From: Anditalea sp. | GTDB taxonomy: Bacteria > Bacteroidota > Bacteroidia > Cytophagales > Cyclobacteriaceae | Length of the DNA stretch: 64,000 nt | Assembly: GCA_040905145.1 (NCBI GenBank) | Contig: JBBDSC010000217.1 | Span: forward strand, 6,935-70,934 | Direction: 5' to 3' | Shown here: in pieces, positions 12,003 through 29,649 of the stretch | Layout of the letters: every line of letters begins with the position of its first letter | Position numbering within the stretch: the stretch's first letter is position 1 | Position numbers and translations under genes: made by a program | Notes under the pieces: model-generated | Databases searched by the model: none | What the model saw: the letters and a program-made list of their open reading frames with translations, nothing else | Told to the model about the DNA's origin: nothing

Positions 12003-15000
12003 ATGAAATTAAAATTACGAAAGACAATTTACATGATGGGCAGATATTTTCTGTTCGGAATTGTAATACAAATGTTGGCCTTCAACTTTGTATTGGCAGA
12101 ACATGACAATGGTCAAGATGAATCCATTGATGCAGTTCTGGTAAAAGTTTTCCGAGGATCCACATTCCAACGCAACTTTTCCAATAGTGCTGAAAATCCA
12201 TCCAAATCAGGTTCTTTGGAGAATTTTTTAGTTGAAGCTTCCCAACCACCTGTTTTTGATTTGACCAAAGCTAACAATGGTGTTGATGCCAATACAAAGG
12301 CAAGTGAAGAACAAATAACCAGGGATGATGACGCTGATATTATTGTAACGGGACAAGTTTTGGATGAGAAGGGAGAACCCCTGCCAGGGGCTACGATTAC
12401 GGTGGATGGAGCTCCTACAATAATAGGGACTGTCACGGATATCGATGGAAATTATTCCATTACGGTACCGGAAGATGCAGTCTTGGATTTTTCATTTATC
12501 GGATTTGAGTCCCTTCTTGTTCCAGTGGATAACCGTTCCCAGATAAACGTTACACTTTCCGTAGATATGTCTTCCTTGGATGAAGTTGTTGTCGTGGGGT
12601 ATGGTACTCAAAAGAGACAATCACTGACAGGGGCTATATCTTCAATTTCAAGTGAAGATATAGGTCGGGTACGAGGTGGGGCCACGGTAAGTTCCGGTTT
12701 AGCTGGAAAATTGCCAGGCGTCTCGTTTCGAATGCCAGATGGACGTCCTGGTGCAGCAGCCAGGGTGCAGATCCGAAATATGGGAGATCCCTTGTTTGTG
12801 ATTGATGGAATTCAACAGGAGGTACAGCAATTTAACAATCTAAACCCCACTGACATAGAAAGTATAACCATATTAAAAGATGGATCCGCCGCCATCTATG
12901 GGGTACGGGCCGCTAATGGTGTAGTATTAGTAACTACAAAAAAAGGATCAAGAGGTGATAAAAACACAATCAATATAAACGCCTATCAAGGTTTCCAAAA
13001 CTGGACAAAGTTCATGGATGTGACCAATAATTCTTATGACTGGGCCATGGAAAAAGTTCAGGCAGATATGAATGGTTTTGGTACAACCAACATAACAAAA
13101 GAAGATTTGGAGAAATATAAATTGGGAATTGAGCCAGGGTATCAGAGTTTTAATTGGAAAGATTTTATTATAAAAAAGAATGCCCCTATATCTCAAATTG
13201 ATATCAATGCATCAGGAGGGTCAGAAAAAATCAATTACTACATTTCTGGAAGCCATTTAAAACAATCCTCTGTTTTAGGCCGTGAATTCACTTTTGGTAG
13301 AACGAACCTGATAAGCAATATTGATGTCGATATAAGTGAACGTTTAAAAGTGGGGATTGGAATAAATGGGTATATGGAAGAGCGATTGAATCCCGGTATT
13401 CCAGGGGGCGATGACTATTGGTTGCCCCGATATGCCATCTTGCGGAATACTCCTTGGGAACGTCCCTATGCAAATGACAATCCCCTATACCTGAACGATA
13501 TCAAGCACAACGAAACCAACTGGGCTTATAATAATTTCAAGTATGGAGGTTATAAAAGGGAAAATAAAAAATATTTGCAAACTAATTTTACTGGCGAATA
13601 TCAGTTCGACTTCCTGGAAGGTCTTTCAGCCAGAGGAATGTATTCTTATGGAATTGAGGATGTACTGATGGATGGCCATGAATATACCTATGAAACATAT
13701 ACTTATTATCCAGCCACCGGAGAAACTCCTGAGGAATACCGGGTTACTGGTGGAAGTACCAACCCTTGGCGAGAGCGGGAAACCCGAAAAATAGAAAAGA
13801 ACAACTCACAGCTTGGTCTTAACTATAGTAATATTTTTGGTGATCATGAGATCGGTGCATTGTTTCTTGCCGAACGTTATGAAACTAGAGCTCGTCGAGT
13901 ATGGGTACATGCAGTACCGGCTACCAACATCCTTCCTTTATTGTATTTCAATACCATGGACAGGTATGATGACAGTGATTTTGAAGAAGCTAGAATAGGA
14001 TACATTACCCGAATAAATTACAATTTTGACAATAAATATTACTTAGAAATATCAGGGAGACGAGATGCTTCCTGGAAATTTTCACCTGACCAAAGGGTAG
14101 GGTATTTTCCTTCCGCTTCAGTGGGATGGAGAATTTCAAAAGAGGATTTCATGGAATCTATAGTGAGCGGAAACATCTTGAATGATTTAAAATTACGTGC
14201 TTCCTACGGGATTTTGGGTGATGACAATATTGGTATTGACCCATATGATTATCTTGCCGGTTACACTTATAACCAAGGCACTGGGATTTTGGATCGTACA
14301 CCTATTATCGGAACCAGAGATAAAGGCCAGCCTATTACCAATATTACCTGGTTAACCAGTAAAATATTGGATATAGGTGCTGATTTCAGCTTATTTAATG
14401 GAAAAGTTAACGGTAGTGTGGACTATTTTAACCGGAAACGGACTGGATTAAGAGGGCGAAAATACGATATAGTGGTACCGAATGAATTAGGCTACAACCT
14501 CCCTGATGAAAATGTCAATAGTGACAAACAATTTGGTGGTGAAGCATCTCTTTCCTATGCAGGAAATGTCGGTGATTTCACCTATAGCATCGGCGGAAAT
14601 CTGAGCTATGCACGTAGTAAATTCCTTTCCTCCTACAATCCAATCTTTTTTAACTCCTGGGATCAGTACCGCAATTCAGCCGAGGATAGATTTCAAAATC
14701 TAAGTTGGGGATATAAGGTTATTGGGCAGTTTTCTTCACAGGATGAAATAAACAATTATCCTGTCAATGTAGATGGACAAGGTAATAAAAGCTTACTTCC
14801 AGGAGATCTGATTTATGAAGATTTAAATGGCGATAAAATAATTGATGATTATGATCAGAGGCCTATAGGCTATGGAACAAACCTTCCTGTAGTAAACGGG
14901 GGTTTAAATTTTGTCTTTGGATGGAAAAATTTTGATTTTGCCATGGATTTTTCATTAGCCTCCATGTATTCCTTTACAGCTGATAATGAGTTAAGAAGAG

Positions 15001-15395
15001 CATTTCGTGCCAATGGGGGGAATATGGCAGAACACCTAAGAGATGCATGGCACAGGGAGGACCCTTTCGACTTGAACAGTAACTGGATACCGGGAACTTT
15101 TCCCCCAAACAGGTTTAATCAGGGAGGGCTAAGTTCAGTCAATAAAACCTCTGACTTTTGGATGCACAATGTTACCATCTTTAGGGCAAGGACGATACAA
15201 TTGGGTTATTCATTGCCTGTGTCGATCATTAATAGGGTAAAAATCCAACAGGCAAGGGTTTTTGTAAATGGATATAATTTATTCTTTTTTGATAATTTAA
15301 AAGATTATCCCATTGATCCTGAGGTTACTGATACCAACGGATTGCAATATCCACAAAATAGAATAATTAATATAGGTGTTGGTTTAACGCTTTAA
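12003..15395 (+). CDS. SusC/RagA-family TonB-dependent outer-membrane transporter
   Basis: 1130 aa. A CarboxypepD_reg-like segment (VTGQVLDEKGEPLPGATITV), the plug region DEVVVVGYGTQKRQSLTGAIS and a long barrel are visible. An N-terminal extension of about 110 aa precedes them. Confidence 0.9.
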   Translation: MKLKLRKTIYMMGRYFLFGIVIQMLAFNFVLAEHDNGQDESIDAVLVKVFRGSTFQRNFSNSAENPSKSGSLENFLVEASQPPVFDLTKANNGVDANTKASEEQITRDDDADIIVTGQVLDEKGEPLPGATITVDGAPTIIGTVTDIDGNYSITVPEDAVLDFSFIGFESLLVPVDNRSQINVTLSVDMSSLDEVVVVGYGTQKRQSLTGAISSISSEDIGRVRGGATVSSGLAGKLPGVSFRMPDGRPGAAARVQIRNMGDPLFVIDGIQQEVQQFNNLNPTDIESITILKDGSAAIYGVRAANGVVLVTTKKGSRGDKNTININAYQGFQNWTKFMDVTNNSYDWAMEKVQADMNGFGTTNITKEDLEKYKLGIEPGYQSFNWKDFIIKKNAPISQIDINASGGSEKINYYISGSHLKQSSVLGREFTFGRTNLISNIDVDISERLKVGIGINGYMEERLNPGIPGGDDYWLPRYAILRNTPWERPYANDNPLYLNDIKHNETNWAYNNFKYGGYKRENKKYLQTNFTGEYQFDFLEGLSARGMYSYGIEDVLMDGHEYTYETYTYYPATGETPEEYRVTGGSTNPWRERETRKIEKNNSQLGLNYSNIFGDHEIGALFLAERYETRARRVWVHAVPATNILPLLYFNTMDRYDDSDFEEARIGYITRINYNFDNKYYLEISGRRDASWKFSPDQRVGYFPSASVGWRISKEDFMESIVSGNILNDLKLRASYGILGDDNIGIDPYDYLAGYTYNQGTGILDRTPIIGTRDKGQPITNITWLTSKILDIGADFSLFNGKVNGSVDYFNRKRTGLRGRKYDIVVPNELGYNLPDENVNSDKQFGGEASLSYAGNVGDFTYSIGGNLSYARSKFLSSYNPIFFNSWDQYRNSAEDRFQNLSWGYKVIGQFSSQDEINNYPVNVDGQGNKSLLPGDLIYEDLNGDKIIDDYDQRPIGYGTNLPVVNGGLNFVFGWKNFDFAMDFSLASMYSFTADNELRRAFRANGGNMAEHLRDAWHREDPFDLNSNWIPGTFPPNRFNQGGLSSVNKTSDFWMHNVTIFRARTIQLGYSLPVSIINRVKIQQARVFVNGYNLFFFDNLKDYPIDPEVTDTNGLQYPQNRIINIGVGLTL

Positions 15396-15414
15396 GTATT
15401 TTAAATTTTAAGAC

Positions 15415-17325
15415 ATGCAAAAATTATATTACATATTAATCGCAATACTATTGGGTTTCAGTTGGGGGTGTGAATCTGATGAAGAGTTTATGAACAAACC
15501 ACCCAATCAGATTCTAACCGTGGAACAGGCATTTTCTGATCCTGCTCAGGTATTATCCATTTTAGCAAATTTATATTCCCGCCAATTTTCTTATTACAGG
15601 CTAAATGACTGGGCGACTTTTGGGGATTTCAATGAAGCTTTTTATGCACATACCCAAGGCGTCACCAATGAATTCCATACCAATACCACCTGGCCTTTTG
15701 GAGGAATAAGAAATTTTTGGACCACTTGGGATTATACTTATATAAGAGAACTCAATCTGTTTCTTGAGAGAATAGAAACTTCCTCGATTACCGAAGATCT
15801 AAAAACCAGGTATGCTGCTGAAGCCAAGTATTTACGTGCGGCCTATTATCTTGAACTCGCCCAATTCTACGGTGGGGTTCCCATAATTTTAGAATCCCAG
15901 AGCTATGATTTTAGCGGAGACCCCTCTTATCTTCAAATCCCAAGATCAACAGAGGCTGAAATCTATGACTTTATCATTGAGGAAGCCGAATCCTTAAAGA
16001 CTATACTTCCTGCGGATGCCACCAGTAAATCAAGGGCTACCAAAGGTGCCGCCCTGGCTATGAAAGCAAGGGCTGCCATTTATGCAGCATCCCTTGCAAA
16101 ATATAATAATAGCATCACCCCTTCGGTATCTCTTTCTGGGGGTGAGGTAGGAATTCCAACAGGCAGGGCTGAGGAGTATTATAATACTGCTCTGGAAGCC
16201 TCCAAAGAAATAATAGAAGGAACGGCAGGTTCATATTCCTTATATATGAAGAACCCTACCAATCTTTCAGAAAATTTTGCCGCACTATTCTATGATAAGA
16301 ATGCGAATCCTGAGGTCATTTTTGCTGACGATTATCTATTAAAATATAGGACTCATTATTTTACCGGAGCAAATCAACCTCGTTTTGGTGCGGAGGAAGA
16401 AGAAGGGGGTGCACTCAATCCAAGTCTCAACCTGGTTCAGGAATTTGAATTGCTGGACAATACCTTTGCCCCTATTCCAACTACCGATGAAAACGGTGAT
16501 CCTATTTATTATGAATCTCAACTGGATATATTTGCAAATCGGGATGCCAGGCTGGCAGGAACCGTTATATTGCCAGGATCAAATTTTAAGTCAAGACCTG
16601 TTGATATATGGGCAGGTTATCAGTTGGCCAATGGCACGGTGATCAGTGGAAATGACAGAGGTGACCAAAGGATATTGCCGGGGAAAACTATTGAGCAACA
16701 GGTTGTGGGATTTGATGGACCTGTTGAAGGGGCAGTACAGAATGCTCAAATGGGTTTCTATCTTCGGAAATATGTGGATCCTGCACCCGGCTCAGGTCAG
16801 CGAGGTATTCAAAGCGAAATTTGGAAAATTAAGTACCGCTATTCTGAAATCCTGCTAATTGCCGCTGAAGCTGCTTTTGAATTGGGACAACCGGATATTT
16901 CAGCCAACTATCTAAATATGGTACGCGAGAGGGCTGGGTTTACTATTCCCCTAAAAGGATCAGATATATCCTTGGATAGGATCGTTCATGAACGCAGAGT
17001 GGAGTTTGCCTTTGAAGGTTTGTACTTTATGGATTTAAAACGTTTTAGAATCGCCCATAGAATTTTTGATGGGGTATCCATGACTAAGGAAAATTTACTT
17101 TCTGGAATAGGCAAGGCAACTAAAAGAAGCACTATGCCCTGGGGTTTATGGCCTTATAGGATTTATAATCCTGGGTCTGAAAACGATGGAAAGTGGATTT
17201 ATAAAGAATATTTGTCAAAGCAGGTGACTGGTGCTGACAATTGGCAATTAGGTAATTATTATAGTAACATCAGTAATGAAATACTAAATAACAATCCAAA
17301 ACTTGTAAGACAACCTCTTCAGTAA
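15415..17325 (+). CDS. SusD/RagB-family nutrient-binding lipoprotein
   Basis: The gene lies immediately downstream of SusC. It has a lipoprotein leader (LLGFSWGC) and the SusD-type C-terminal block ERRVEFAFEGLYFMDLKRF. Confidence 0.9.
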   Translation: MQKLYYILIAILLGFSWGCESDEEFMNKPPNQILTVEQAFSDPAQVLSILANLYSRQFSYYRLNDWATFGDFNEAFYAHTQGVTNEFHTNTTWPFGGIRNFWTTWDYTYIRELNLFLERIETSSITEDLKTRYAAEAKYLRAAYYLELAQFYGGVPIILESQSYDFSGDPSYLQIPRSTEAEIYDFIIEEAESLKTILPADATSKSRATKGAALAMKARAAIYAASLAKYNNSITPSVSLSGGEVGIPTGRAEEYYNTALEASKEIIEGTAGSYSLYMKNPTNLSENFAALFYDKNANPEVIFADDYLLKYRTHYFTGANQPRFGAEEEEGGALNPSLNLVQEFELLDNTFAPIPTTDENGDPIYYESQLDIFANRDARLAGTVILPGSNFKSRPVDIWAGYQLANGTVISGNDRGDQRILPGKTIEQQVVGFDGPVEGAVQNAQMGFYLRKYVDPAPGSGQRGIQSEIWKIKYRYSEILLIAAEAAFELGQPDISANYLNMVRERAGFTIPLKGSDISLDRIVHERRVEFAFEGLYFMDLKRFRIAHRIFDGVSMTKENLLSGIGKATKRSTMPWGLWPYRIYNPGSENDGKWIYKEYLSKQVTGADNWQLGNYYSNISNEILNNNPKLVRQPLQ

Positions 17326-17351: not shown

Positions 17352-18053
17352 ATGAAAAATAAATTTAATTATATATTATTGTTCCTATTGGGTATTTCTT
17401 TCATGTCTTGTGAAAAGGATAATTATGAACCGCCAAAATCCCCTCTTACTGGAAGGGTTATTTACCAAGGAACGCCATTGTATTTACAACCGAATAGAGT
17501 AAGTTACGAGTTATTCCAAGATGGTTTTGGTAAGAGTGGTCCCATAAGCGGTACTTTTACGGCTGATGGTAATTACTCACAACTCCTTTTTAATGGGACT
17601 TATAAAATGATAATTCGGGAAGGACAAGGCCCATTTCTTTGGGGAGAGTCAGTGGATAACCTGAAGAGTGAAGAAATTATCCATGTCAATGGTGCTACAG
17701 AGATGGATATCGAGGTCCTACCTTATTGGATGATTATAAACCCTAACATATCATTTAGTGAAGGAAAAGTAACAGGAACATTTGGACTTGAGCAAATTAT
17801 TGACGGTGCTAATGCTAAAAGTATTGAAAGTGTAACGCTTTACCTAAGCAAAACCGTTTTTGCTAATTCTGACACCAATGTGGCTACTAATTCAATAGGA
17901 GGGAGTGACATTAGCGATTTCAGTAATATCAATCTGAGTGTTAATGTACCAACCTTAACACCTTCTCAAAATTATATATTTGCCAGTATAGGTGTAAAAA
18001 TAGTTGGAGTGGAAGATATGATTTTTTCTGAGGTTCAAAAAATCAATTTATAG
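17352..18053 (+). CDS. DUF3823-like surface lipoprotein (SusE/F-position accessory protein)
   Basis: The lipoprotein leader SFMSCEKDNYEPPKSPLTGRV is typical of DUF3823. The gene sits directly after SusD. Confidence 0.55.
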   Translation: MKNKFNYILLFLLGISFMSCEKDNYEPPKSPLTGRVIYQGTPLYLQPNRVSYELFQDGFGKSGPISGTFTADGNYSQLLFNGTYKMIIREGQGPFLWGESVDNLKSEEIIHVNGATEMDIEVLPYWMIINPNISFSEGKVTGTFGLEQIIDGANAKSIESVTLYLSKTVFANSDTNVATNSIGGSDISDFSNINLSVNVPTLTPSQNYIFASIGVKIVGVEDMIFSEVQKINL

Positions 18054-18141: not shown

Positions 18142-21100
18142 ATGAAACAAGCATTTATTTTATTGATATTAACTGGAATGTTATTCCATAGTTGTAAGGA
18201 TAAATTGATTACAACCAGTGGTAACCTTTCTGAGAATAATGATTACCAAAAAGGGAGAAGAGCAGAACTCCTTTTTCTTGGCCATGCAAGTGATCACCAC
18301 CCTTCCAGAAAATATGCCCCATGGCTGGCAACTTCGGTTTTCAAAAGCGGCATCAACATTACCTATACAGAAAATCTGGAAGATTTAAATCCTGAAAACT
18401 TAAACAAATACGATGCATTGGTCATTTATGCCAACCACGATTATTTGGCCCCGGAACAGGAAAGCGCACTCAAGGAATTTTTGGATAATGGGAAAGGCCT
18501 TATTCCCCTTCATTCTGCAACAGGCTGCTTCAAAAATTCCGACTGGTATATCCAAACAATAGGGGGGCAATTTGCATCCCATGGTACCGGAGAATTTATG
18601 GCCGAAATCATTGAGGCTTCCCATCCTATTCTGGACGGTGTGGAAAGCTTTGAGACCTGGGATGAAACTTATGTGCACAAAAACATCAATCCCGATATCA
18701 AAGTGCTGACGGAGCGGGTGGAAAACGGGCATCGCGAACCTTATACCTGGATAAGGGAAGAAGGAAATGGAAGGATTTTTTATACCGCCTATGGGCACAA
18801 TGACAGCACGTGGACCAATCCCGGTTTCCAGAAACTGGTAGAAAACGGCATCTTTTGGGCAATGGGAGACAAAGTCCAAGCTCTGGTCGCTGCATTGGAC
18901 ATTCCTGAAGTGGATGTTTATGAGGAACCGATTTCAGACTTTACCAAAAGATATGAGGTGCCAAAGGTCCAGGAACCACTGGAACCGGAAGAATCAAAAA
19001 AACTGATCCAGACTCCGGTGGATTTTGACATTCAATTGTTCGCTTCAGAACCTGATATCGTCAATCCTATCGCCATGGCCTGGGATGAAAGGGGAAGACT
19101 TTGGATCGTTGAATCGGTGGATTATCCCAATACCTTTAAAGAAACCGATGGGCTGGCCAATGACAGGATCAAAATCTGTGAGGATACAGACGGGGACGGC
19201 AAAGCAGACAAGTTTACCGTCTTTGCTGATAACCTGAACATCCCTACGAGTATTGCTTTTGCGAATGGAGGGGTAATCGTTTCCATGGCGCCTGATTTTC
19301 TATTCATGAAGGACACCGATGGGGACGACGTGGCAGATGTAAGAGAGGTTATAATGACAGGGTGGGGTAAGTATGATACTCATGCGGGACCCTCCAACCT
19401 ACAATATGGATTTGACAATAAAATTTGGGGTGTGACCGGCTATTCGGGCTTCAACGGCACCATCAATGGAAAGCCAATGCGTTTCCCACAGGGGGTTTAC
19501 CACTTTGATCCCGACGGTAAAAATTTCGAATACCTGGCCAGTACCAGCAACAACACTTGGGGATTGGGCTTTTCGGAAGACAACAATGTGTTTATTTCCA
19601 CTGCCAACAATACCCATGCGGCTTATTACTCCATCCCTGCGAAATACCTGCAACGTACCTTACCTGAAGCAGCCGAAGGACAACCTTCGCCCCCTTATTC
19701 CATACAGCCCATCCAAAAAATCGATGGACATTACGATGCCCATGCGATGACGCCCAACCTTCGCCAGGTGGATGTGGTCGGCGGATTTACTTCTGCGGCG
19801 GGCATCAGGCTGTATACGGCCAGGGATTTTCCCAAAGAATATTGGAATAGGATTGCTTTTGTGAGTGAACCGACGATCAGGTTGACCCATAATGCCATCC
19901 TCGAACCCGAGGGGGCAGGGTTTGTGGAAAAAGACGGCTGGAATTTATTGGCCAGTTCGGACGAATGGTTTGGACCCGTCCAGGCGGAAGTGGGGCCGGA
20001 TGGCGCTGTATGGATAGCTGATTGGTACAACTTTATCATCCAGCACAATGTCTTTGTGGAAAGACAGGCCCCATCCAGAATGGTTCTTCCTTTTACCGAT
20101 CAACCACATGGCCAGGGAAACGCTTTCCATAGTGAATTGCGCGACACCAACCATGGACGGATCTATCGTGTGGTGTACAAAAATGCAAAGCCTTACACTC
20201 CAATCCAATTATCAACAAATGATCCCCAAGGTTTATTGGCTGCTTTGAAAAACGACAATATGTTCTGGAGAATGACTGCTCAGCGGCTATTGGTGGAATC
20301 AGGGGCACAGGACGTCATTCCAGAGCTCTACGGGATCATAAACGATCAGCAAATTGATGAGATTGGATTAAACAGTCCTGCGGTCCATGCCTTATGGACC
20401 TTGCATGGCCTGGGGGCTTTGGATGGATCCAACCAAGAGGCTTTACAAGTGGCCATAAAAGCATTGTCCCATCCCGCAGATGGGGTGAGGAAAGCCGCCG
20501 TGGAAGTTCTGCCCGAAAATGAACAGGCTATCGCTGCATTTCAGGAAAGTGGGATCATCCAGGACCCAAACTTAAATGTCAGGATGCATGCATTTCTGTC
20601 CCTTGCCACCATGCCCACTTCAGATGCTGTCGGGGAGCTGCTTTACGGGGCAAGTATGTCCCCGGAAAACGCAAAGGATGACTGGCTGTCCAAGGCACTG
20701 TTTGCCGCGGCGATCAACCATGAAGAAAGCTTCCTTGCCGCTTCAAGCAAAAATGGTGCGGCTTCCTCTCCGGAAAACGGTTTGAACCAACGTTTGGTAA
20801 AAGCAGTGGGCAAGGAAATCTATGAACTGGGAAGAAGAAGTACTTTACAATTTTCTCCGGAAGTAGCCCAGAAAGAAATCATCATCAAAGCCTCTGTATC
20901 CAAAAGAGGGAATGAAGATCCGGAGGGATTTATAGTGGCCCAGGGTGGAAAGGAAAACGGCTATGGCCTTTATATAGAGGATGGAAAGCTAAATTTCGTA
21001 GTCAACCAAAATGGCAAAAAATATAAGGCCGTTACCACCAAAGCGTTGCCGGAAAGATATGAGTTCGTCGCATATTTGGCCAAAAATGGTCGGATGAGTA

Positions 21101-21289: not shown

Positions 21290-21322
21290 AGACCTGTCAG
21301 GTTTTGAAAACCTGACAGGTCT
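21290..21322 (+). terminator. Perfect 16+1+16 palindrome after the 18142-21276 gene
   Basis: AGACCTGTCAGGTTTTGAAAACCTGACAGGTCT starts 14 nt after the stop codon. Confidence 0.6.
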
Positions 21323-21406
21323 ATAACTGGTATGAAAATTGAAAACCCCGTTATCAACTAAGCGAATATTTCCCTTACCTGAAATCAATAATCAAAATTT
21401 AGAGTC

Positions 21407-22006
21407 ATGAAGAAAAATTTGTTTTTATTGGGGGCTTTGGGTCTTTTAATATCCTGCCAGGGTATTTCAGATAAGAAAAGCACAGCCTTCCATTCCCTTT
21501 CAATGAACCAGGGATTCGCCGTTCAGACCGTAGCTTACCTTGCCCAGGAAGGCATAATGGAAGGCATGAGATTATCATCAGAAGGGAATGCCCGTTCTGA
21601 TTGGGACAAAAAATTTATCCAGGAGGATCCAAGATTTATACTGATTGAGGTTGTCCCTGATTTAATGAAGTTTGATACCGATACGTTTACAGTAGCTGTA
21701 GGAGAAAAAATCGTACTTGAACTGGATAACCTGGACGGGATGCAACATAATCTGCTAATCGGCAAACAAGGGACATTGGAGAAGATAGGGACCGCCGCAG
21801 ATGCCATGCTCAGGGATCCAAAAGCTGCTGAAAAACAATATGTTCCAGAAATACCAGAGGTATTGTTTGCTACTGAATTGCTCGACCCGGGGGAAGTCTT
21901 CACCCTGAAGTTTACCGCCCCTGCTGAACCTGGAAATTATCCTTTTGTATGTACTTTTCCCGGCCATTGGCGAATGATGAACGGGATTATGAAAGTGGAG
22001 GAATAG
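21407..22006 (+). CDS. Cupredoxin (azurin/plastocyanin-like blue copper protein), lipoprotein
   Basis: The leader is LLISCQG. The copper-ligand pattern is MQHN...YPFVCTFPGHWRMMNG (His, Cys, His, Met). Confidence 0.75.
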   Translation: MKKNLFLLGALGLLISCQGISDKKSTAFHSLSMNQGFAVQTVAYLAQEGIMEGMRLSSEGNARSDWDKKFIQEDPRFILIEVVPDLMKFDTDTFTVAVGEKIVLELDNLDGMQHNLLIGKQGTLEKIGTAADAMLRDPKAAEKQYVPEIPEVLFATELLDPGEVFTLKFTAPAEPGNYPFVCTFPGHWRMMNGIMKVEE

Positions 22007-22011
22007 CAAAA

Positions 22012-22127
22012 GGACGGAAGTCCGAAGTCGGATGACCGAAGTGAAGTGGAGAGTGGGGAGTTCCTTAGGAACGAAGAGACGAAGAGAGAGGGAGACGGAA
22101 GAGGTGACATCGGAAGTCCAAAGTCAG
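22012..22127. repeat. Purine-rich word repeat block (GGAAGTCCGAAGTC / GACGAAGAG / GGAGACGGAAG words)
   Basis: CGGAAGTCCGAAGTC at about 22015 and CGGAAGTCCAAAGTC at about 22110 form a direct repeat. Related words occur at 56531-56560 and 4667-4700. Confidence 0.5.
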
Positions 22128-22247
22128 CGTTCTTACCCTGAAGGGGTAAAAGATGAATAGCCCCGGGTGAAATGACTATGGACCATCAACTATGGACTCT
22201 CTGTTCTGCAGAATATAAATTAAACAATAACATCAATAAACTACCCT

Positions 22248-23012
22248 ATGAAAAAAAATAACAATATCTTTTGGCTTTCCAAGCACCTGTTTTTTTCAAC
22301 TGCTTTCTGGATGATGGCGTGCTTTATGCTCAGCCAATGTACTCCAAAATCCCAGCAAGCCTCCAATGCATCTGAAAGTATCCGGACCTTAATAGTAGGC
22401 GGGGGTGCATCCCATGATTTTGACAAATGGTACAAAGAAGCTGATGCCCGTACATTGCGGGAGGATGGACTGGCCACCGTAAGGTACACTGACAACACGG
22501 ATTCCATTGTTCATTATCTACCGGATATTGACGTCCTATATCTTACCAACAACCAACCTATCAGCGATCCCAAGACACGCCAGGCCATCTTTGATTTTGC
22601 GGATGCAGGAAAGGGGCTGGTTTTGGGACATGCCGCACTTTGGTACAATTGGGAAGACTGGCCCGAATACAATCAGCTAATGGTAAGTGGGGGCTCCAGC
22701 GGTCATGATAAATATGGTAGCTTCGATGTCAACATCACCAATACAAATCACCCGGTTACCCAAGGGGTGGATCAGAAGTTTACCTTAAAAGACGAACTTT
22801 ATTATTTTAAAGTGGACGAAAGTGGCCCTGGGATAGAAGTGCTTGCCACGGCCAGTACCGAAGGTTCTGAAATTTTCCCCTCTGTGTTTGTCATAAACCA
22901 CCCTAACGCAAGGATTGTAGGCATAGCCTTGGGACATGATGGGGAATCCCATGATCTGAAGGCCTATAAAACGATCTTGAGAAATGCAGTGAAATGGGCA
23001 GCTAATGAATAA
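22248..23012 (+). CDS. ThuA domain-containing protein (trehalose-utilisation-like)
   Basis: 254 aa with a leader peptide. IRTLIVGGGASHDF and ARIVGIALGHDGESH..NAVKWA resemble ThuA. Confidence 0.8.
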   Translation: MKKNNNIFWLSKHLFFSTAFWMMACFMLSQCTPKSQQASNASESIRTLIVGGGASHDFDKWYKEADARTLREDGLATVRYTDNTDSIVHYLPDIDVLYLTNNQPISDPKTRQAIFDFADAGKGLVLGHAALWYNWEDWPEYNQLMVSGGSSGHDKYGSFDVNITNTNHPVTQGVDQKFTLKDELYYFKVDESGPGIEVLATASTEGSEIFPSVFVINHPNARIVGIALGHDGESHDLKAYKTILRNAVKWAANE

Positions 23013-23030
23013 TTGATTCGTAGTTCCCCA

Positions 23031-23065
23031 GAGGCCTTCCAGGTTTTGAAAACCTGGAAGGCCTC
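23031..23065 (+). terminator. Perfect 17+1+17 palindrome after the ThuA gene
   Basis: GAGGCCTTCCAGGTTTTGAAAACCTGGAAGGCCTC is followed by AAGTTTTTG. It shares its central 17 nt with 21290-21322. Confidence 0.6.
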
Positions 23066-23141
23066 AAGTTTTTGTACCTGTACCTCATACTTTGTACCAA
23101 ACAGCAAAACTTATTACGATTTACCAAAATATTAAAAAGTT

Positions 23142-24257
23142 ATGAATCAGAAAAAAATCACAGTTGTTATTGTCGGAATGGGATTTGGAAAGGAATTTAT
23201 TCCCATTTATCAAAGCCATCCAAATATCAAGTCAGTAGGCATTTGTACCAGAAATCAAAAAACACTGGATGAACTGGCCGCCAAATTCAACCTAGACAAG
23301 GACCTGTGTTTTACCAATTTTGAGGATGTTCCAAAAAGAGATGATGTGGATGCCATCCATGTAGTGACCCCTGTTCCTGAACACGCAAAGATGACTTTAG
23401 CGTCCCTTAATGCCAATAAACATACTGCCTGCACCATCCCCATGGCAATGACAGTGGAAGACTGCAAGGCAATCGTCGAGGCAAAAAGAAAAGCCAACAA
23501 GGTGTATATGATGATGGAGACCGCCTTATATACCCGTGAATTTTTATACGGACTCCAACTGGCAGAAAAAGGGGATCTGGGAAAAATCCAGTTTGTAAGA
23601 GGCTCCCATATTCAGGATATGAGCATGGAAGGATGGGCCGAATACTGGAAAGGTTTCCCCCCCATGTTGAATGGGACTCATGCCATTTCTCCCTTATTAA
23701 GAATAAACAATACAAAGGCAGAAGCAGTAGTTTGCCATGGTTCCGGCAGATTGTCCGAAGATCTGGCCAGTAGGTATGGCTCCCCTTATGCTGTGGAAAC
23801 GGCTACTTTTACCCTTAAAAATTCTGATGTGGTCGCCGAGGCTACCCGATCCTTATTTGATGTGGTAAGACAGTATAGGGAAAGTTATGATGTATACGGC
23901 ACCAAAATGTCCTTTGAATGGGAGCAATTAGAGGATGAGAGCCATGTGATATTTGATGGTGGGGAAAATGCCCGGCGTATCAATGTTCCTGATACCGATG
24001 CACTGCTCATTGAGCCCATCAAGCATTTTACCAAAAGGGAGAAAATAGATGACCCCAATCACGTCTCATTTCTACAGGGAGCAGGCCATGGTGGATCCCA
24101 CCCTCACTTGGTGCAGGAGTTTGTAGCTGCTATCGTAGAAGGAAGGGACTCGGCAGTAGATGCGGCCTTGGCGGCCAACTATACCTGTGCAGGCATTTGT
24201 GCTCATGAATCAGCCATGAAAAACGGGAAGAGAGTCAATATCCCCGATTTTGAATAA
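23142..24257 (+). CDS. Gfo/Idh/MocA family oxidoreductase
   Basis: The N-terminal Rossmann segment is KITVVIVGMGFGKEF. Length is 371 aa and no signal peptide is apparent. Confidence 0.85.
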   Translation: MNQKKITVVIVGMGFGKEFIPIYQSHPNIKSVGICTRNQKTLDELAAKFNLDKDLCFTNFEDVPKRDDVDAIHVVTPVPEHAKMTLASLNANKHTACTIPMAMTVEDCKAIVEAKRKANKVYMMMETALYTREFLYGLQLAEKGDLGKIQFVRGSHIQDMSMEGWAEYWKGFPPMLNGTHAISPLLRINNTKAEAVVCHGSGRLSEDLASRYGSPYAVETATFTLKNSDVVAEATRSLFDVVRQYRESYDVYGTKMSFEWEQLEDESHVIFDGGENARRINVPDTDALLIEPIKHFTKREKIDDPNHVSFLQGAGHGGSHPHLVQEFVAAIVEGRDSAVDAALAANYTCAGICAHESAMKNGKRVNIPDFE

Positions 24258-24454
24258 ATTTTGGAAATTTTCCCGCTGATCACGCTGCCTTGCCACCAGG
24301 CAGGTTCTCACAGATGAAGGCTTAAAATCTGCGTGGACTCGCCTGTCCTGTCCGGCCGGGAGGCCTGCCGGACATTATGGCAGATTTGAATTATATCTTC
24401 ATTTAAAATCAGTTGACAACTACATCTATTCTTTTCATCTTTTAACAATTCAAC

Positions 24455-25300
24455 ATGCAATTTGGAGTAAGTACATTTTTATGGGTATCACCATTTGATA
24501 CCCATTCTTTCGATTTGGTGTATAAGATCAAGGAAATGGGATTTGATATCATTGAAGTACCTGTTGAAAACAAGTCGTTGATTGACTGGTCCCAATTAAA
24601 AGAAGCGGTGAGAGAGGCGGGGCTAAAAGTCACCATCAGCGGTGCTTTTGGGGCAGATCGGGACATCTCCAGTGAAGATCCCAAGGTCCGGGAGCAAGGC
24701 CTGAAATATATAATGGATTGCATTGAAATTGCTGAATATATGGGCAGCCCCTTATTTGGTGGGCCTTTGTATTCTGCCGTGGGCAAGACTCGCTTTATTT
24801 CAGAGGACCAGAAAAAAAGGGAAATGGAATGGTGTGTGGAAAACCTTTCCAAAGCTGGAAAATTTGCCCAGAATCATGGCATCATCCTAGGGTTGGAGCC
24901 CTTGAACAGATTTGAAAGTGACATGGTCAATACAGCCGACCAGGCGCTCTCCATCGTCAAGGAAGTTTCCCATCCCAACCTCAAAATCCAATTGGACACT
25001 TTCCATTGTAATATTGAAGAAAAAAACATTCCAGACACCATCAGGAAAATAGGGAAAGACCTGCTATGCCATGTGCAGGGAAATGAAAGTGACCGGGGAA
25101 CCCCGGGAACAGGCAATCTGGATTGGCAGGGAATCAAATCCGCCCTAGAAGAAATCGGGTATGATGGGGCTATGGTGATTGAAACATTTGGAGCAGTTTC
25201 AGAGGAAATCGCCAAAGCTACCTGTATTTGGAGACCTTTGGCCAATAGTTCCGACGAATTGGCCGAAGAAGGGCTGGCTTTCTATAAGGGGTTGTTTTAA
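24455..25300 (+). CDS. Sugar phosphate isomerase/epimerase (xylose-isomerase-like TIM barrel)
   Basis: 281 aa. MQFGVSTFLW..GFDIIEV..LGLEPLNRFE..DTFHCNIEE follows the pattern typical of this fold family. Confidence 0.85.
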   Translation: MQFGVSTFLWVSPFDTHSFDLVYKIKEMGFDIIEVPVENKSLIDWSQLKEAVREAGLKVTISGAFGADRDISSEDPKVREQGLKYIMDCIEIAEYMGSPLFGGPLYSAVGKTRFISEDQKKREMEWCVENLSKAGKFAQNHGIILGLEPLNRFESDMVNTADQALSIVKEVSHPNLKIQLDTFHCNIEEKNIPDTIRKIGKDLLCHVQGNESDRGTPGTGNLDWQGIKSALEEIGYDGAMVIETFGAVSEEIAKATCIWRPLANSSDELAEEGLAFYKGLF

Positions 25301-25416: not shown

Positions 25417-26292
25417 ATGATTAAAGTATTGCCAGAAATCGAGAATAATGGAAAAATGTGGAAGGATTCACTTATTTTAAAAGGTGACTCTAATGTAGTG
25501 ATTGAAGGCTTGCCTGACAATTTCTATTCCAGTTGTGTTACAAGCCCTCCATATTGGGGTAAAAGAGACTATGGATACGAAGGACAGATTGGGGCAGAAC
25601 ACGAGTTGAATGATTATATCAAAAACCTTGTTAACATTTTTCGAAATGTAAAGAAAAAGTTAAAAGAAGATGGAACTCTATGGGTCAATATTGGAGACAC
25701 ATATACAAGTGGAAATAGAACTTGGCGTGCAGAAGATAAAAAGAATCCTGCCCGCGGGATGAACTATAGGCCGCCTACTCCGGATGGACTTAAACCCAAG
25801 GATTTAATAGGTCTTCCATGGAAACTTGCTTTTGCTTTACAGGAAGACGGTTGGTATCTTCGCTCTGACATTATATGGTATAAACCAAATTGTCAACCCG
25901 AATCAGTAAAAGATCGACCTACTCAATCTCATGAATATATATTTCTGCTATCAAAATCAGAGAAATACTATTATGATTATTTAAGTATTAGAGAGCAGAC
26001 TTCGCAAAAAGACAAGCTTCGTAACAAGCGTAGTGTCTGGTTTGTCAATACAGAACCTTTTCCAGAAGCACATTTTGCGACTTTCCCAGAGGATTTAATA
26101 AAGCCAATCATTTTAGCATCATCTAAAGAGAGTGATTTTGTCTTAGATCCATTTTTTGGGTCAGGAACGGTCGGGTCAGTTTGTAAAAAATTAGGCCGCA
26201 AGTTCCATGGAATTGAATTAAAAGATGAATATATAGAAATTGCTAAAAGACGAATATTTAATGATAAACAAATTTCGCTCTTTAATTCCTGA
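25417..26292 (+). CDS. Beta-class DNA methyltransferase, probably N4-cytosine (SPPY)
   Basis: Motif IV (TSPPYWGKRDY) lies near the N-terminus and motif I (LDPFFGSGTVG) near the C-terminus. The gene is AT-rich compared with its flanks. Confidence 0.85.
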   Translation: MIKVLPEIENNGKMWKDSLILKGDSNVVIEGLPDNFYSSCVTSPPYWGKRDYGYEGQIGAEHELNDYIKNLVNIFRNVKKKLKEDGTLWVNIGDTYTSGNRTWRAEDKKNPARGMNYRPPTPDGLKPKDLIGLPWKLAFALQEDGWYLRSDIIWYKPNCQPESVKDRPTQSHEYIFLLSKSEKYYYDYLSIREQTSQKDKLRNKRSVWFVNTEPFPEAHFATFPEDLIKPIILASSKESDFVLDPFFGSGTVGSVCKKLGRKFHGIELKDEYIEIAKRRIFNDKQISLFNS

Positions 26293-27217
26293 TTTACAGA
26301 TTAGCTTCTATTATCGACTTAAAACAGTAAAGGAACTTTATTTTCATGCTGCTTTAAAGCAAGCTTTAAAAAGTATAGATATTAAAGAAGTTGACAGGGA
26401 ACTATCAATATATGTATCACAGGAAGCTTTAAGGAAATTAGCGTCTTTTTCTTTACGTGGAGAGGCCTTATTCCCAATACCATCCTTACTTCTCCAAAAT
26501 CCGTATCTATTAGGTTACTATAGATTACTACTAGGCTTTTCTCAAAAAGAATTCTATTCTAAAGGACCCTTTGGAATTTTTAAATCAATGGAAGAAAAAG
26601 GTTCTATTTCGAAGAACGCTAAACTTTCTTTGAATGAATTGTGTAAAAGCTTAATTCAATCAATGGAATTAGTGGTGACCGAAATTGATGAATTTTCCCT
26701 ACCCATTATTCAAGAATTGCAACTACTAACAGTTGGACCATTATTTCGTGGCTCCATGAATAATAAATACGGGCAATTAGCAACGCAGAAAACTTTCGAT
26801 CTAATTAAAGAAATTGTAAGAGACTATATTCTAGCAACCACTCCATTATCGATTAGAATTAAAAATGATTCAGGTCGAATGGTAACAATTGCATTTGCCG
26901 CTGATCCAGATATTGAAATTATTGAAGAACTAGCCAATAGCAATAGAGGTTTAATTTCTATGGAAATAAAAGGAGGTCTTGATATATCAAATGTTCATAA
27001 TAGAATTGGTGAGGCAGAAAAAAGCCATCAAAAAGCAAGGAAGCGAGGTTATTTTGAATTTATGACCATTCTGAATGTGGAAGTAAATTACGAAGCCCTT
27101 AGATTTGAATCACCTACAACAAGTCATTTTTATAATCTAGAAAAGCTAATGGATAAAACATCTTCAGAATTTTTTCATTTCAAAGATACTTTATCATCCA
27201 TTATGGGTATAAAATAA
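26261..27217 (+). CDS. Candidate type II restriction endonuclease partner of the methyltransferase
   Basis: The first ATG at 26261 overlaps the MTase 3' end by 32 nt. A PD-(D/E)XK-like arrangement is present (AADPDIEII ... ISMEIKGG). AT-richness matches the MTase. The family was not identified with certainty. Confidence 0.5.
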   Translation: MINKFRSLIPDLQISFYYRLKTVKELYFHAALKQALKSIDIKEVDRELSIYVSQEALRKLASFSLRGEALFPIPSLLLQNPYLLGYYRLLLGFSQKEFYSKGPFGIFKSMEEKGSISKNAKLSLNELCKSLIQSMELVVTEIDEFSLPIIQELQLLTVGPLFRGSMNNKYGQLATQKTFDLIKEIVRDYILATTPLSIRIKNDSGRMVTIAFAADPDIEIIEELANSNRGLISMEIKGGLDISNVHNRIGEAEKSHQKARKRGYFEFMTILNVEVNYEALRFESPTTSHFYNLEKLMDKTSSEFFHFKDTLSSIMGIK

Positions 27218-27381: not shown

Positions 27382-28830
27382 ATGAAAAAATCATTATTTA
27401 CCGCATTCGTTATTCTTTTTGCCTTCATAGCCCAAGCCGAAGTAAGCTTGCCGAAGGTCTTTGCTGACCATATGGTTTTACAGCGCGATATGAAAATCCC
27501 CGTTTGGGGATGGGCCGATCCAAGGGAACGTGTGGAAGTAACTTTTCAGGATAAGTCCTACAAGACGAGAGCCGATAAAAGTGGAAAATGGCAGGTTGAG
27601 ATGAATTCCTCAACAGCAGGAGGCCCTTTCACCTTAACTGTAAAGGGTAAAAACACTCTTTCCTTGAAAGATGTGTTGGTGGGGGATGTTTGGCTGCTGG
27701 GCGGACAGTCCAACATGGAGTGGCCGCTGAGTCAGACCAATAGCGGTGAGGACAGTATAAGCTTGGCTGATTATCCAAATATCCGATTATTTGAGGTAGG
27801 GCAAAACGTTAGCATCTTCCCGATTAAGGATGTCCCGGAAGCCTCCTGGAACCTATGTTCGCCGGAGACTATTGCCGATTTCTCAGCTATTGGTTATTAC
27901 TTTGGGAAAAATTTGCACCAGGACCTGGATATTCCCATTGGGCTGTTGGACATCAATTGGGGAGGAACTGTTTCTGAAGCCTGGACCAGTGGGGAGGCCT
28001 TGACTACCCATGCAGATTTTGAAGGAAAAATGACTGCTTATCAAGCAAGCGGCGAAGCGGATTTTCAAAATGCTGAAAACAAAGGTCCCAACAGCTGGCC
28101 TGCCAGCCTTTTTCATGGAATGCTGGAACCTATTATTCCTTTTGGCATCAAAGGGGCGCTCTGGTATCAGGGAGAGTCCAATGCTCCCAGGGCCTATCAG
28201 TACCGGGAAATCTTCCCTTTGATGATCCAGGATTGGCGTAGCCAATGGGGCCAGGGTGATTTTCCATTCCTATGGGTTCAATTGGCGAATTTTAAACAAC
28301 CGGTAGCTCAACCCAAAGACAGTGATTGGGCAGAATTGCGGGAAGCACAATCCATGACCCTATCCCTGCCCAATACAGGTCAGGCGGTGATCATTGACAA
28401 AGGAGAGGCCGATGACATTCATCCAAGGGATAAATGGACGGTGGGGGAGAGATTGGCCCGATCCGCCAAAAAGGTGGCTTACGGACAAAATGTGGTATAT
28501 AGCGGCCCTACCTTTAACAAAATGGAAATAGAGGGAAACAAGGCCAGGATAATTTTTGACCATGTGGGATCAGGCTTAAAGATCAATGATAAATACGGAT
28601 ATGTAAAAGGATTTGCCATAGCCGGGGAGGACAAGGTGTTCCATTGGGCCAATGCCTGTCAGGACGGCAACGATATTATCGTTTATTCCGACAAAGTCCC
28701 CCACCCCAAATCCGTCCGATATGGCTGGGCCGATAATCCGGATGATGTAAATGTATATAATACAGAAGGCCTTCCAGCTTCTCCCTTTAGGACCGATTCT
28801 TGGGAAGGAATAACTTTTGGTAAAAAATAA
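27382..28830 (+). CDS. Sialate O-acetylesterase-like (SASA family) carbohydrate esterase
   Basis: A signal peptide is followed by LPKVFADHMVLQRD, GGQSNMEW and the WYQGESN blocks. Confidence 0.8.
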   Translation: MKKSLFTAFVILFAFIAQAEVSLPKVFADHMVLQRDMKIPVWGWADPRERVEVTFQDKSYKTRADKSGKWQVEMNSSTAGGPFTLTVKGKNTLSLKDVLVGDVWLLGGQSNMEWPLSQTNSGEDSISLADYPNIRLFEVGQNVSIFPIKDVPEASWNLCSPETIADFSAIGYYFGKNLHQDLDIPIGLLDINWGGTVSEAWTSGEALTTHADFEGKMTAYQASGEADFQNAENKGPNSWPASLFHGMLEPIIPFGIKGALWYQGESNAPRAYQYREIFPLMIQDWRSQWGQGDFPFLWVQLANFKQPVAQPKDSDWAELREAQSMTLSLPNTGQAVIIDKGEADDIHPRDKWTVGERLARSAKKVAYGQNVVYSGPTFNKMEIEGNKARIIFDHVGSGLKINDKYGYVKGFAIAGEDKVFHWANACQDGNDIIVYSDKVPHPKSVRYGWADNPDDVNVYNTEGLPASPFRTDSWEGITFGKK

Positions 28831-28854
28831 GGCATTAATACTTAAACCTGTTTC

Positions 28855-29649
28855 ATGAGAGCATTAAAATTAATTTTGCCCGCGGTCACTTTGCTGTCTG
28901 TACTTTGCTGTTCTACCCGAACATCGGAAAACAACGAATGGCAGACTCTTTTCAACGGCAAGAACCTGGACGGTTGGACTGTCAAGATCCACCACCATGA
29001 TGTGGGTGACAATTACGCCCAGACATTCCGGGTTAAAGATGGTTTGCTTCAGGTAAATTATGAGGATTATCAGGAATTCAATGAACGCTATGGCCATTTG
29101 TATTATGAAGAACCTTTTTCTTCCTTTCGCCTTAAATGGGAATACAGGTTCACTGACCAATGGCTTAAAGATGCTCCTGATTATACGTATAGAAACAGCG
29201 GCATCATGTTCCACTCCCAAGCCCCTAATACTATTTTGAAAGAACAGGATTGGCCAATCTCAGTGGAGTTTCAGTTGTTGGCGGATGCAGGAGATGGCAA
29301 CACCCGTCCTACCGGCAATATGTGTTCTCCGGGAACGGAAGTTTTTTACCAGGGAGAGATGGATTCCAGACATTGCATTAATTCTTCCTCAGATACCTTT
29401 GAGTGGGACCAATGGATATCCGCAGAGCTTATCGTCTATGAAGATTCACTGGTTACCCACCTAATCAATGGAGATACGGTATTACAATATGCCAAACCGC
29501 AAATTGGAGGAGGGGTAGCCAATGGTTACGACCCAGAAATAAAGAAAGATGGAACAGCCTTGAAGGAAGGCTATATCGCCCTTCAAAGTGAGGGGCAGGG
29601 GATAGAATTCAGAGAGATAAAGATAAAAAAACTGGATCCTATGCCTTAA
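28855..29649 (+). CDS. DUF1080 (3-keto-disaccharide hydrolase family) protein
   Basis: The leader is followed by WQTLFNGKNLDGWTV near the N-terminus. GYIALQSEGQGIEFREIKIKKL lies at the C-terminus. Confidence 0.8.
   Translation: MRALKLILPAVTLLSVLCCSTRTSENNEWQTLFNGKNLDGWTVKIHHHDVGDNYAQTFRVKDGLLQVNYEDYQEFNERYGHLYYEEPFSSFRLKWEYRFTDQWLKDAPDYTYRNSGIMFHSQAPNTILKEQDWPISVEFQLLADAGDGNTRPTGNMCSPGTEVFYQGEMDSRHCINSSSDTFEWDQWISAELIVYEDSLVTHLINGDTVLQYAKPQIGGGVANGYDPEIKKDGTALKEGYIALQSEGQGIEFREIKIKKLDPMP

Follow-up and report, generated by a model that had tools for sequence, protein, structure and literature searches.

A conserved five-gene redox module adjoining SusC/SusD genes in Anditalea sp. suggests periplasmic sugar oxidation beside glycoside hydrolases

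The biology of polysaccharide utilization loci (PULs) rests almost wholly on hydrolases and lyases. Redox breakdown of glycans in Bacteroidota is a recent discovery and concerns only a small periplasmic set of Gfo/Idh/MocA (hereafter Gfo), TIM-barrel and DUF1080 proteins of gut anaerobes. In the AL cluster, the counterpart of BT2156-BT2160, a Gfo protein exported by the twin-arginine translocation (Tat) system oxidises C3 of the sugar, and a secreted TIM-barrel lyase and a DUF1080 lipoprotein then carry out elimination and hydration, while another Gfo-family protein of the cluster, AL4, is cytosolic (PMC8121099; bioRxiv 10.1101/2024.03.25.586180). A respiratory variant, LacABC or a glucoside 3-dehydrogenase together with cytochrome c and DUF1080, is found in aerobes (Caulobacter, Pedobacter; PMC9007349). 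Here we analyse a SusC/SusD locus followed by a group of redox genes in a 64-kb stretch of DNA from Anditalea sp. (called 'the window' throughout). A preliminary description of this locus had proposed that it breaks down its glycan by oxidation followed by cleavage and that this would be an unusual type of PUL; the route itself is, however, the one already described in Bacteroidota (PMC8121099; bioRxiv 10.1101/2024.03.25.586180).

Our reading, to which we attach a probability of roughly 55%, is that this is a SusC/SusD glycan-uptake locus carrying a widely conserved five-gene redox module, and that the module oxidises sugar in the periplasm beside glycoside hydrolases (GHs). Genes were called from a listing of the open reading frames (ORFs) of the window and from Pfam and NCBIfam scans. 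The locus opens, on the forward strand, with a SusC-like TonB-dependent transporter (12003-15395; Plug and CarboxypepD_reg domains), a SusD-like lipoprotein with an N-terminal lipobox (15415-17325; SusD_RagB and SusD-like_3) and, in the position usual for SusE/F, a DUF3823 surface lipoprotein, also with a lipobox (17352-18053; DUF3823 and DUF3823_C). Adjacent SusC and SusD genes, here followed by DUF3823, are a hallmark of SusC/SusD-type PULs. The five redox genes follow on the same strand: a ThuA-propeller lipoprotein of 1044 residues (18142-21276), an azurin-type cupredoxin lipoprotein (21407-22006; PF00127), a stand-alone exported ThuA-fold protein (22248-23012; PF06283), an atypical Gfo-fold protein (23142-24257; PF01408, E 3.5e-22, covering the N-terminal Rossmann domain) and a TIM barrel of the ketose 3-epimerase family (24455-25300; recognised by xylose-isomerase-like Pfam models and by matches in the PDB). 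All eight genes are intact ORFs both in the window and in an independent assembly made from another read set. The gene order is identical in that assembly, which rules out an assembly artefact.

Relatives of the locus were sought with the ThuA-propeller protein in a scan of one genome per species. More than 568 were found, and the best 80 loci (60-77% identity) were mapped. They belong to the Cyclobacteriaceae, Spirosomataceae, Hymenobacteraceae, Chitinophagaceae and Sphingobacteriaceae and thus to three orders, Cytophagales, Chitinophagales and Sphingobacteriales. Loci with at least 5 kb on both flanks (53 of the 80) are called fully flanked below. The closest relative at species level is designated L002; a still closer one, L083, lies outside the set of 80.

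The order ThuA-propeller, cupredoxin, ThuA, Gfo, TIM barrel recurs in essentially all 80 loci. Its least constant member is the TIM barrel gene, present in 53 to 59 loci, while the stand-alone ThuA gene is found in 76 to 78. A SusC/SusD pair adjoins this core in 46 of the 53 fully flanked loci, and there is no adjacent pair in the remaining 7. Orthologues of the window's SusC (50-74% identity) adjoin the redox core in 52 loci, those of SusD are 48-80% identical, and DUF3823 is kept after SusD in 44 to 46 loci. The position of the SusC/SusD/DUF3823 genes relative to the core varies from locus to locus, as does the type of regulator beside it (for example, an extracytoplasmic function (ECF) sigma factor with FecR, a hybrid two-component system (HTCS) or LacI). 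Since the adjacency survives both rearrangement and change of regulator, it argues for a functional link, and in this respect the association of the SusC/SusD trio with redox genes noted earlier is borne out. Judged by gene neighbourhood, the conserved unit consists of SusC/SusD/DUF3823 and the five genes of 18142-25300. It does not include the O-acetylesterase and DUF1080 genes lying farther downstream, which had been counted as part of the same unit.

The ThuA-propeller protein carries a ThuA domain (residues 45-240), a DUF7133/TIGR02604 propeller (281-680), HEAT repeats and a LamG-type domain (approximately 929-1020), and its TIGR02604 score is 267 bits against a cutoff of 122. The NCBI entry for the 1044-residue protein, from a metagenome-assembled genome, reads 'PVC-type heme-binding CxxCH protein [Anditalea sp.]', although the protein has neither a CxxCH haem motif nor a match to a cytochrome in Pfam. 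Like the cupredoxin and the stand-alone ThuA protein, it starts with a signal or lipoprotein peptide; the same is true of the ThuA orthologues examined.

The cupredoxin has a full set of copper ligands with the spacing of azurin: M-Q-H-N (His114) followed by C-T-F-P-G-H-W-R-M-M (Cys182, His187 and Met191). In 59 of the 80 loci it is not a separate protein but the C-terminal domain of the propeller protein, and CTFPGH...M is kept in all 59. In the canonical members of the family the equivalent place is filled by cytochrome c. This is also the case for a paralogue in the window (1482-4661), which is composed of a GDSL lipase/esterase domain, DUF7133, HEAT repeats and a cytochrome c with CITCH at residue 940 and represents an alternative electron-carrier arrangement within the same genome. 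The firmest sign that the propeller domain is a redox enzyme lies in its obligatory association with one-electron carriers. We therefore regard the ThuA-propeller protein as a putative periplasmic sugar dehydrogenase, in part on the strength of structure models, and infer that the cupredoxin is its electron acceptor. A periplasmic electron carrier had already been suggested for this locus, and the ligand motif and the fusions agree well with it.

Two AlphaFold models were made. The full-length model, built with 35 close orthologues, has a pLDDT (predicted local distance difference test) of 71 and a poor propeller, and Foldseek retrieved only ThuA-like and LamG matches with it. A model of the propeller domain alone, built with 73 diverse sequences, has a pLDDT of 91.3 and is six-bladed. 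Its top Foldseek matches are pyrroloquinoline quinone (PQQ) glucose or aldose dehydrogenases (2ism, 3das, 7cgz, 1qbi, 3a9g and 2g8s) and members of the fungal auxiliary activity family AA12 (6h7t and 6jt5), with E-values of 1e-10 to 1e-7 and TM-scores of 0.5-0.65. The modelled fold is suggestive, not proof, of membership of the PQQ sugar dehydrogenase/AA12 class. Several Asp, His, Asn and Arg residues are invariant in the alignment of the propeller family, including a His in D-T-H-A-G and two Arg in H-G-R-I-Y-R. Invariant His and Glu are also numerous in the ThuA domain, and the LamG domain resembles lectin and carbohydrate-binding module folds in Foldseek. DUF7133/TIGR02604 proteins form a very large family, with 11,932 clusters at 50% identity.

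The three remaining genes of the core differ in predicted location. The stand-alone ThuA protein is exported and shows approximately 25% identity to rhizobial ThuA (E 7e-5). The Gfo and TIM-barrel proteins, on the other hand, have no signal peptide in the window or in any orthologue examined, and their folds begin at the N-terminus; both are predicted from these features to be cytoplasmic. Of the periplasmic or cytoplasmic placement left to be settled by signal peptides in the preliminary description, the exported part (propeller, cupredoxin and ThuA) thus fits a periplasmic pathway, whereas the Gfo and TIM-barrel proteins speak against such a role for themselves.

The TIM barrel matches D-psicose and D-tagatose 3-epimerases in the PDB over its full length (E 2e-42), while its match to the 3-keto-glucoside epimerase YcjR (6wn6) reaches only 70 bits. 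Its score on the NCBIfam model PsicseEpim is 204 bits, against an equivalog cutoff of 300. In the numbering of the Clostridium cellulolyticum ketose 3-epimerase, it retains equivalents of the metal ligands E150, D183 and E244, as well as of Glu156, His186 and Arg215; the equivalent of the fourth ligand, His209, is Gln in 53 of 53 orthologues.

The Gfo protein is by far the most conserved product of the core. Median identity to its orthologues is 88.7% (range 82-93%); in the same loci the TIM barrel reaches 68.3%, the propeller protein 64.8%, ThuA 60.5% and SusC 57.9%. Homologues at 84-94% identity extend from Cyclobacteriaceae to Pedobacter, Sphingobacterium and Chitinophaga; across the same three orders its operon neighbours are 55-77% identical. 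Residues 97-101, C-T-I-P-M, align with C-E-K-P-M of DgpA, inositol dehydrogenase and glucose-fructose oxidoreductase, so that the catalytic lysine of the E-K-P motif is missing, and C-T-I-P-M is present in 72 of 73 orthologues. On the BT_2159_fam model the protein scores 19.6 bits against a cutoff of 650, and its best solved relatives, the DgpA glycoside 3-oxidoreductases, are matched weakly (66 bits). The motif and the weak model scores indicate a distinct subfamily and not an equivalent of BT2158/BT2159. The best full-length plasmid-borne relatives are actinobacterial, not rhizobial. One of these, on a Kitasatospora plasmid beside a sugar ABC transporter, is 29% identical over its full length, has S-S-V-P-M in place of the EKP motif and has a G-H-x-G-S-H motif in common with the window's protein.

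These observations can be combined into the following scheme. The SusC, SusD and DUF3823 proteins would import oligosaccharides, and the locus is probably controlled by the divergently transcribed HTCS gene described below. In the periplasm, the ThuA-propeller-HEAT-LamG lipoprotein, for which the domains and the export signal are in evidence and the fold class is suggested by the model, would oxidise the sugar. Electrons would pass to the azurin-type blue-copper lipoprotein, its partner by fusion in the 59 loci, and from there, presumably, into the respiratory chain of an aerobe. The other exported ThuA protein may act on the same substrates or on their products, and the Gfo protein and the ketose 3-epimerase-like TIM barrel, predicted to be cytoplasmic, would feed the oxidised or keto sugar back into central metabolism. 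The module is best read as different from the known 3-keto lyase pathway. It is conceivable, although we consider it doubtful, that the ThuA-propeller-LamG protein, the azurin and the second ThuA form a new class of oxidative glycan machinery in PULs of aerobic Bacteroidota, coupled to respiration and running in parallel to hydrolysis. AA12-like oxidation would then feed the blue-copper protein, the ThuA folds would cleave or transform the oxidised sugars, and the lysine-less Gfo protein would be a new type of cytoplasmic enzyme acting on the product.

No GH or polysaccharide lyase (PL) domain was found by Pfam in any same-strand ORF of 12003-29649, as the preliminary description had noted, and the intergenic gaps of this region leave no room for additional genes. 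Nor was an intact GH or PL found anywhere in the 64 kb: the glycan enzymes present are an O-acetylesterase, a sulfatase and a truncated GH76 (see below). The related loci differ in this respect. Recurrent neighbours of the core identified with Pfam include GH43 (three clusters), GH5-like, GH2, GH127, GH92, GH78 and a GH130-like protein as well as sulfatases and major facilitator superfamily (MFS) transporters. A labelled GH is present in at least 39 of the 53 fully flanked loci, which is a lower bound since only part of the neighbours was scanned; GH43 occurs in 27 and GH5-like proteins in 21. Sulfatases are present in at least 15 related loci. In those loci whose SusC/SusD proteins are most like the window's (L009, L020 and L039; 63-79% identity), GH2, GH43 or GH127 follows straight after the core; L002 and the window lack these three families there. 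The presence of GHs in most relatives means that their absence is local to the rearranged cluster of this lineage and does not define a GH-free type of PUL, as had been supposed. The redox module is best read as working alongside classical GHs, not in their place. Its GH and sulfatase partners hint at a glycan containing arabinose or galactose and possibly sulfated.

Two other groups of genes accompany the core in relatives. A pair encoding UPF0261 and PEP-hydrolase-like (PF09370) proteins lies downstream of it in 16 to 17 loci (for example, L007 17795-19015 and L024 20319-21185). A family of secreted proteins of approximately 693 residues, absent from the window, adjoins it in 28 of the 80 loci (for example, L065 7650-9731). 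This family has no match in Pfam or the PDB and could represent an enzyme of the system that has so far gone unrecognised.

Downstream of the core, the window differs from most of its relatives. The next two genes, an N6/N4 DNA methylase (25417-26292) and an XcyI-type restriction endonuclease (26240-27217), are a type II restriction-modification (R-M) pair identified with Pfam; a PHROGs scan of these genes added nothing further. In L002 the genes on either side, TIM barrel and esterase, are only about 220 bp apart, which marks the R-M pair (25417-27217) as an insertion. The GC content of this region is low (0.366), and the pair is not part of the sugar system. In L083 a different R-M pair (7844-9863; a C5 methylase and a BsuBI/PstI-type enzyme) lies between the esterase and DUF1080 genes, and R-M cassettes appear to have inserted repeatedly into this cluster.

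Beyond the R-M pair are a secreted SASA-type carbohydrate O-acetylesterase (27382-28830; PDB carbohydrate esterase 9h4u, E 6.5e-133) and, 25 nt downstream, a DUF1080 lipoprotein of the 3-keto-disaccharide hydrolase/lyase family with a lipobox (28855-29649; PF06439, E 7e-39). The R-M pair and the SASA gene thus separate DUF1080 from the core. The 80 loci comprise 1,046 ORFs, none of which is a relative of the window's DUF1080 or GH76, and SASA occurs in only one of these loci, L002. SASA is also present in L083, where the relative position of DUF1080 is kept, and it is only with this very close relative that the arrangement TIM barrel, SASA and, farther on, DUF1080 is shared. By this distribution SASA and DUF1080 are lineage-specific additions. 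The DUF1080 protein matches solved BT2157-type proteins weakly (E 0.002-0.005); it is the only component of the locus whose family has experimentally demonstrated 3-keto-glycoside chemistry. Its subfamily extends from Cyclobacteriaceae to Flavobacteriia and Balneolaceae with 68-80% identity. A relative adjoins GH65 and a PfkB kinase in Pontibacter, and another follows GH2 and GH43 in a GH16 cluster of Christiangramia forsetii. No dehydrogenase was called in the 8-kb flanks of these two loci (L084 and L085).

Farther downstream, a PD-(D/E)XK_3 gene (29849-30229) lies between direct repeats of approximately 100 nt (29702-29803 and 30239-30322; 86-93% identical) and looks like a small cassette inserted between DUF1080 and GH76. 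The GH76 ORF (30335-31336, minus strand; Pfam E 8e-44) has 333 codons with a GTG start, lacks an N-terminus and signal peptide and matches its profile only from position 24. Its orthologue in L083 has 388 residues, and just upstream of it, in another frame, is an ORF of 39 codons ending in a hydrophobic stretch resembling a signal peptide (MMLILRMALVALFPV); together these make it probable that a frameshift has turned GH76 into a pseudogene. The ORF groups with the genes of the minus strand, not with those of the SusC/SusD operon. Beyond it are remnants of an ECF sigma factor gene (approximately 31679-31948) and of a SusD-like gene (31825-32127).

The region upstream of SusC contains three further features. 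The HTCS regulator (5247-9287, minus strand; Reg_prop, Y_Y_Y, HisKA, HATPase, response regulator and AraC helix-turn-helix domains) is likely to regulate the locus; in loci of Algoriphagus and Negadavirga, orthologues with 50-57% identity are immediate neighbours of the ThuA-propeller gene. A SusD fragment (9726-10049, forward strand) represents only the C-terminal part of the protein, positions 173-297 of the SusD_RagB profile. Its counterpart in L017 is an intact SusD, preceded by a SusC-like gene, whose C-terminus it matches with 81% identity. This comparison identifies it, in all probability, as the remnant of a lost second SusC/SusD pair. Finally, the sulfatase (10101-11639, forward strand; PF00884, E 4e-63) has orthologues in the same cluster as the core in L017 (73% identity) and L024 (69%) and is part of the extended locus. 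The cluster has been rearranged in this lineage: it has gained the R-M pair, SASA and DUF1080 and holds a SusD fragment and a truncated GH76.

Two palindromes with the same 17-nt core, CAGGTTTTGAAAACCTG, flank the cupredoxin-ThuA gene pair. That between the propeller and cupredoxin genes (21290-21322) has a perfect 15-bp stem. That between the ThuA and Gfo genes (23031-23065, forward strand) has a perfect 16-bp stem, is followed by a run of T and is terminator-like. Two copies of the core in the window compare with 0.05 expected. A conserved regulatory element can nevertheless be ruled out, as the core is absent from all 80 related loci. In a scan of the window for promoters and terminators, counts were not above those in shuffled sequence, and the scan is thus uninformative on operon structure.

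Several of our own results weigh against the oxidative reading. Generic six-bladed propellers (for example, NHL and SMP30/gluconolactonase) score nearly as well in Foldseek as the PQQ dehydrogenases, and no match to any solved propeller was obtained at the sequence level in single-sequence or profile searches of the PDB. The Gfo protein, without the canonical catalytic lysine, may not be a simple reductase. The terminator-like hairpin between ThuA and Gfo bears on whether the genes for periplasmic and cytoplasmic proteins are co-transcribed. Literature searches on DUF7133 and TIGR02604, on ThuA combined with SusD or a cupredoxin and on glycoside 3-dehydrogenases in PULs turned up no account of such a module, and the one ThuA paper only infers a dehydrogenase role (PMC11494336). 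The sole experimental datum found on this propeller architecture concerns Lac161_ORF7, a TIGR02604-HEAT-cytochrome c protein from a verrucomicrobial cosmid, which after purification was reported to hydrolyse lactose with a Km of 1.8 mM (PMC5342196). The propeller protein could, by this result, itself cleave glycosides. It would then be a non-classical glycosidase, a depolymerase of an unrecognised family, with the cupredoxin as an accessory or regulatory redox partner. The lectin-like LamG domain and the many invariant His and Glu residues of the ThuA domain would suit such an enzyme. We nevertheless think it rather unlikely: the lactose result is a single report, without mechanism or structure, the obligatory fusion or pairing with one-electron carriers indicates redox catalysis, and classical GHs are retained in most of the related loci.

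The explanation offered in the preliminary description was a glycosidase-free PUL using the 3-keto route, in which a 3-keto-glycoside arises by the action of the Gfo or ThuA proteins, is cleaved by elimination by the TIM barrel and DUF1080 proteins, and electrons leave via periplasmic carriers. The DUF1080 and Gfo/TIM families do perform such chemistry in BT2156-BT2160 and AL1-AL5, DUF1080 lies close behind SASA in the window and keeps its relative position in L083, the same-strand ORFs have no GH domain, and DgpA enzymes, the best if weak solved relatives of Gfo, are glycoside 3-oxidoreductases. This explanation appears unlikely to us. The Gfo protein, taken to be a 3-dehydrogenase, and the TIM barrel, taken to be an eliminase, have no signal peptide, whereas the oxidase and lyases of the known pathway are exported; the former in addition has C-T-I-P-M for C-E-K-P-M and scores poorly on the BT_2159 model, and the latter is a full-length relative of ketose 3-epimerases. 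DUF1080 is absent from the 80 species-level loci and is found elsewhere with ordinary GHs (GH65, GH2 and GH43), and the loci that do share the core have classical GHs in at least 39 of 53 cases. A final alternative is that the redox genes are unrelated to the glycan (serving, for example, copper or redox homeostasis, or acting on a non-carbohydrate substrate) and that their proximity to SusC/SusD is fortuitous or belongs to a decaying locus. Local decay and insertion are evident in the SusD fragments, the ECF sigma factor fragment, GH76, the R-M pair and the PD-(D/E)XK cassette, and 7 of the fully flanked loci lack an adjacent SusC/SusD pair. We consider this alternative very unlikely, however: the adjacency is maintained in 46 of 53 loci over three orders through rearrangements and regulator changes. 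The eight conserved genes are, moreover, intact, and in relatives the core is accompanied by genes for GHs, sulfatases, sugar transporters of the MFS and regulators of the LacI type.

We thus retain the reading of a SusC/SusD locus with an oxidative module that works beside GHs. The preliminary description is partly confirmed as an observation and partly supported as an interpretation. Its ten ORFs all exist with the coordinates and domains given there, but the statement that every same-strand gene after the trio encodes a redox or non-hydrolytic sugar enzyme overlooks the R-M pair between TIM barrel and SASA. The GH76, the sulfatase, the SusD fragment and the HTCS regulator were likewise not mentioned.

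The window also contains further gene clusters. A cluster at 40401-46230 contains a TonB-dependent receptor, a Gfo protein with a twin-arginine signal (SRRKFL) and a glucose-methanol-choline (GMC) oxidoreductase, the oxidoreductases occupying 42870-46230. It resembles the known periplasmic glycoside-oxidising systems more than the redox module does and is outside the locus of the latter. It is followed by LutABC (46316-49142). On the minus strand, 34183-40137 holds an L-rhamnose catabolism set (a BD-FAE esterase, an FGGY kinase, a rhamnose-isomerase-like TIM barrel and an aldolase/short-chain dehydrogenase fusion), which also follows GH76 in L083.

In dozens of Cytophagales, Chitinophagales and Sphingobacteriales from soil, freshwater and the sea, SusC/SusD genes are thus linked genetically to a redox module other than that of the gut anaerobes. 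If imported oligosaccharides are indeed oxidised by this module, glycan foraging would be linked directly to aerobic respiration. Very large families of 'unknown' function, DUF7133/TIGR02604 and the exported ThuA proteins, would acquire a function, and bacterial AA12-like auxiliary activities would have to be included in PUL models.

Among described systems, BT2156-BT2160 and AL1-AL5 of Bacteroides and Alistipes are comparable in that they occur in Bacteroidota, draw on the same Gfo, xylose-isomerase-like TIM-barrel and DUF1080 families and begin sugar processing by oxidation instead of hydrolysis; the window's Gfo protein would share its predicted cytosolic location with AL4. In those systems, however, the oxidase is exported by Tat and the lyases are secreted; here, signal peptides are absent from both the Gfo and the TIM-barrel protein, the latter is related to ketose 3-epimerases, the former lacks the EKP lysine, and DUF1080 is outside the conserved unit. 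The Bacteroides and Alistipes systems have no propeller dehydrogenase, ThuA or cupredoxin and recycle a tightly bound cofactor without recourse to the respiratory chain. LacABC resembles the proposed scheme in its periplasmic glycoside oxidation coupled to the respiratory chain in aerobes and in having DUF1080 nearby, but it uses a GMC flavoprotein and cytochrome c in place of the propeller and cupredoxin (the window's GMC gene is in the separate cluster at 42870-46230).

The order of a ThuA-fold gene directly upstream of a Gfo gene recalls ThuAB, the trehalose 3-dehydrogenase of Sinorhizobium and Agrobacterium. Membership of this rhizobial system is ruled out by the low ThuA identity (approximately 25%) and by the export of ThuA but not Gfo, and no ABC sugar transporter of the ThuAB type is present at the locus. 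As its NCBI name implies, the propeller protein itself is built like the PVC-type haem-binding CxxCH proteins (TIGR02604 plus TIGR02603), with TIGR02604 followed by HEAT repeats; it differs from them in that LamG and a separate or fused cupredoxin replace the cytochrome c domain. The soluble PQQ glucose and aldose dehydrogenases and fungal AA12 provide the best structural matches for the modelled propeller domain, although no sequence similarity to them was detected and nothing in those families corresponds to the N-terminal ThuA domain or the HEAT repeats. The AA12 pyranose dehydrogenase of Coprinopsis cinerea (6jt5) is a multidomain protein composed of a propeller, a cytochrome domain and a carbohydrate-binding module. 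Where that enzyme joins its propeller to a cytochrome and a carbohydrate-binding module, the propeller in the window is joined to a cupredoxin and LamG.

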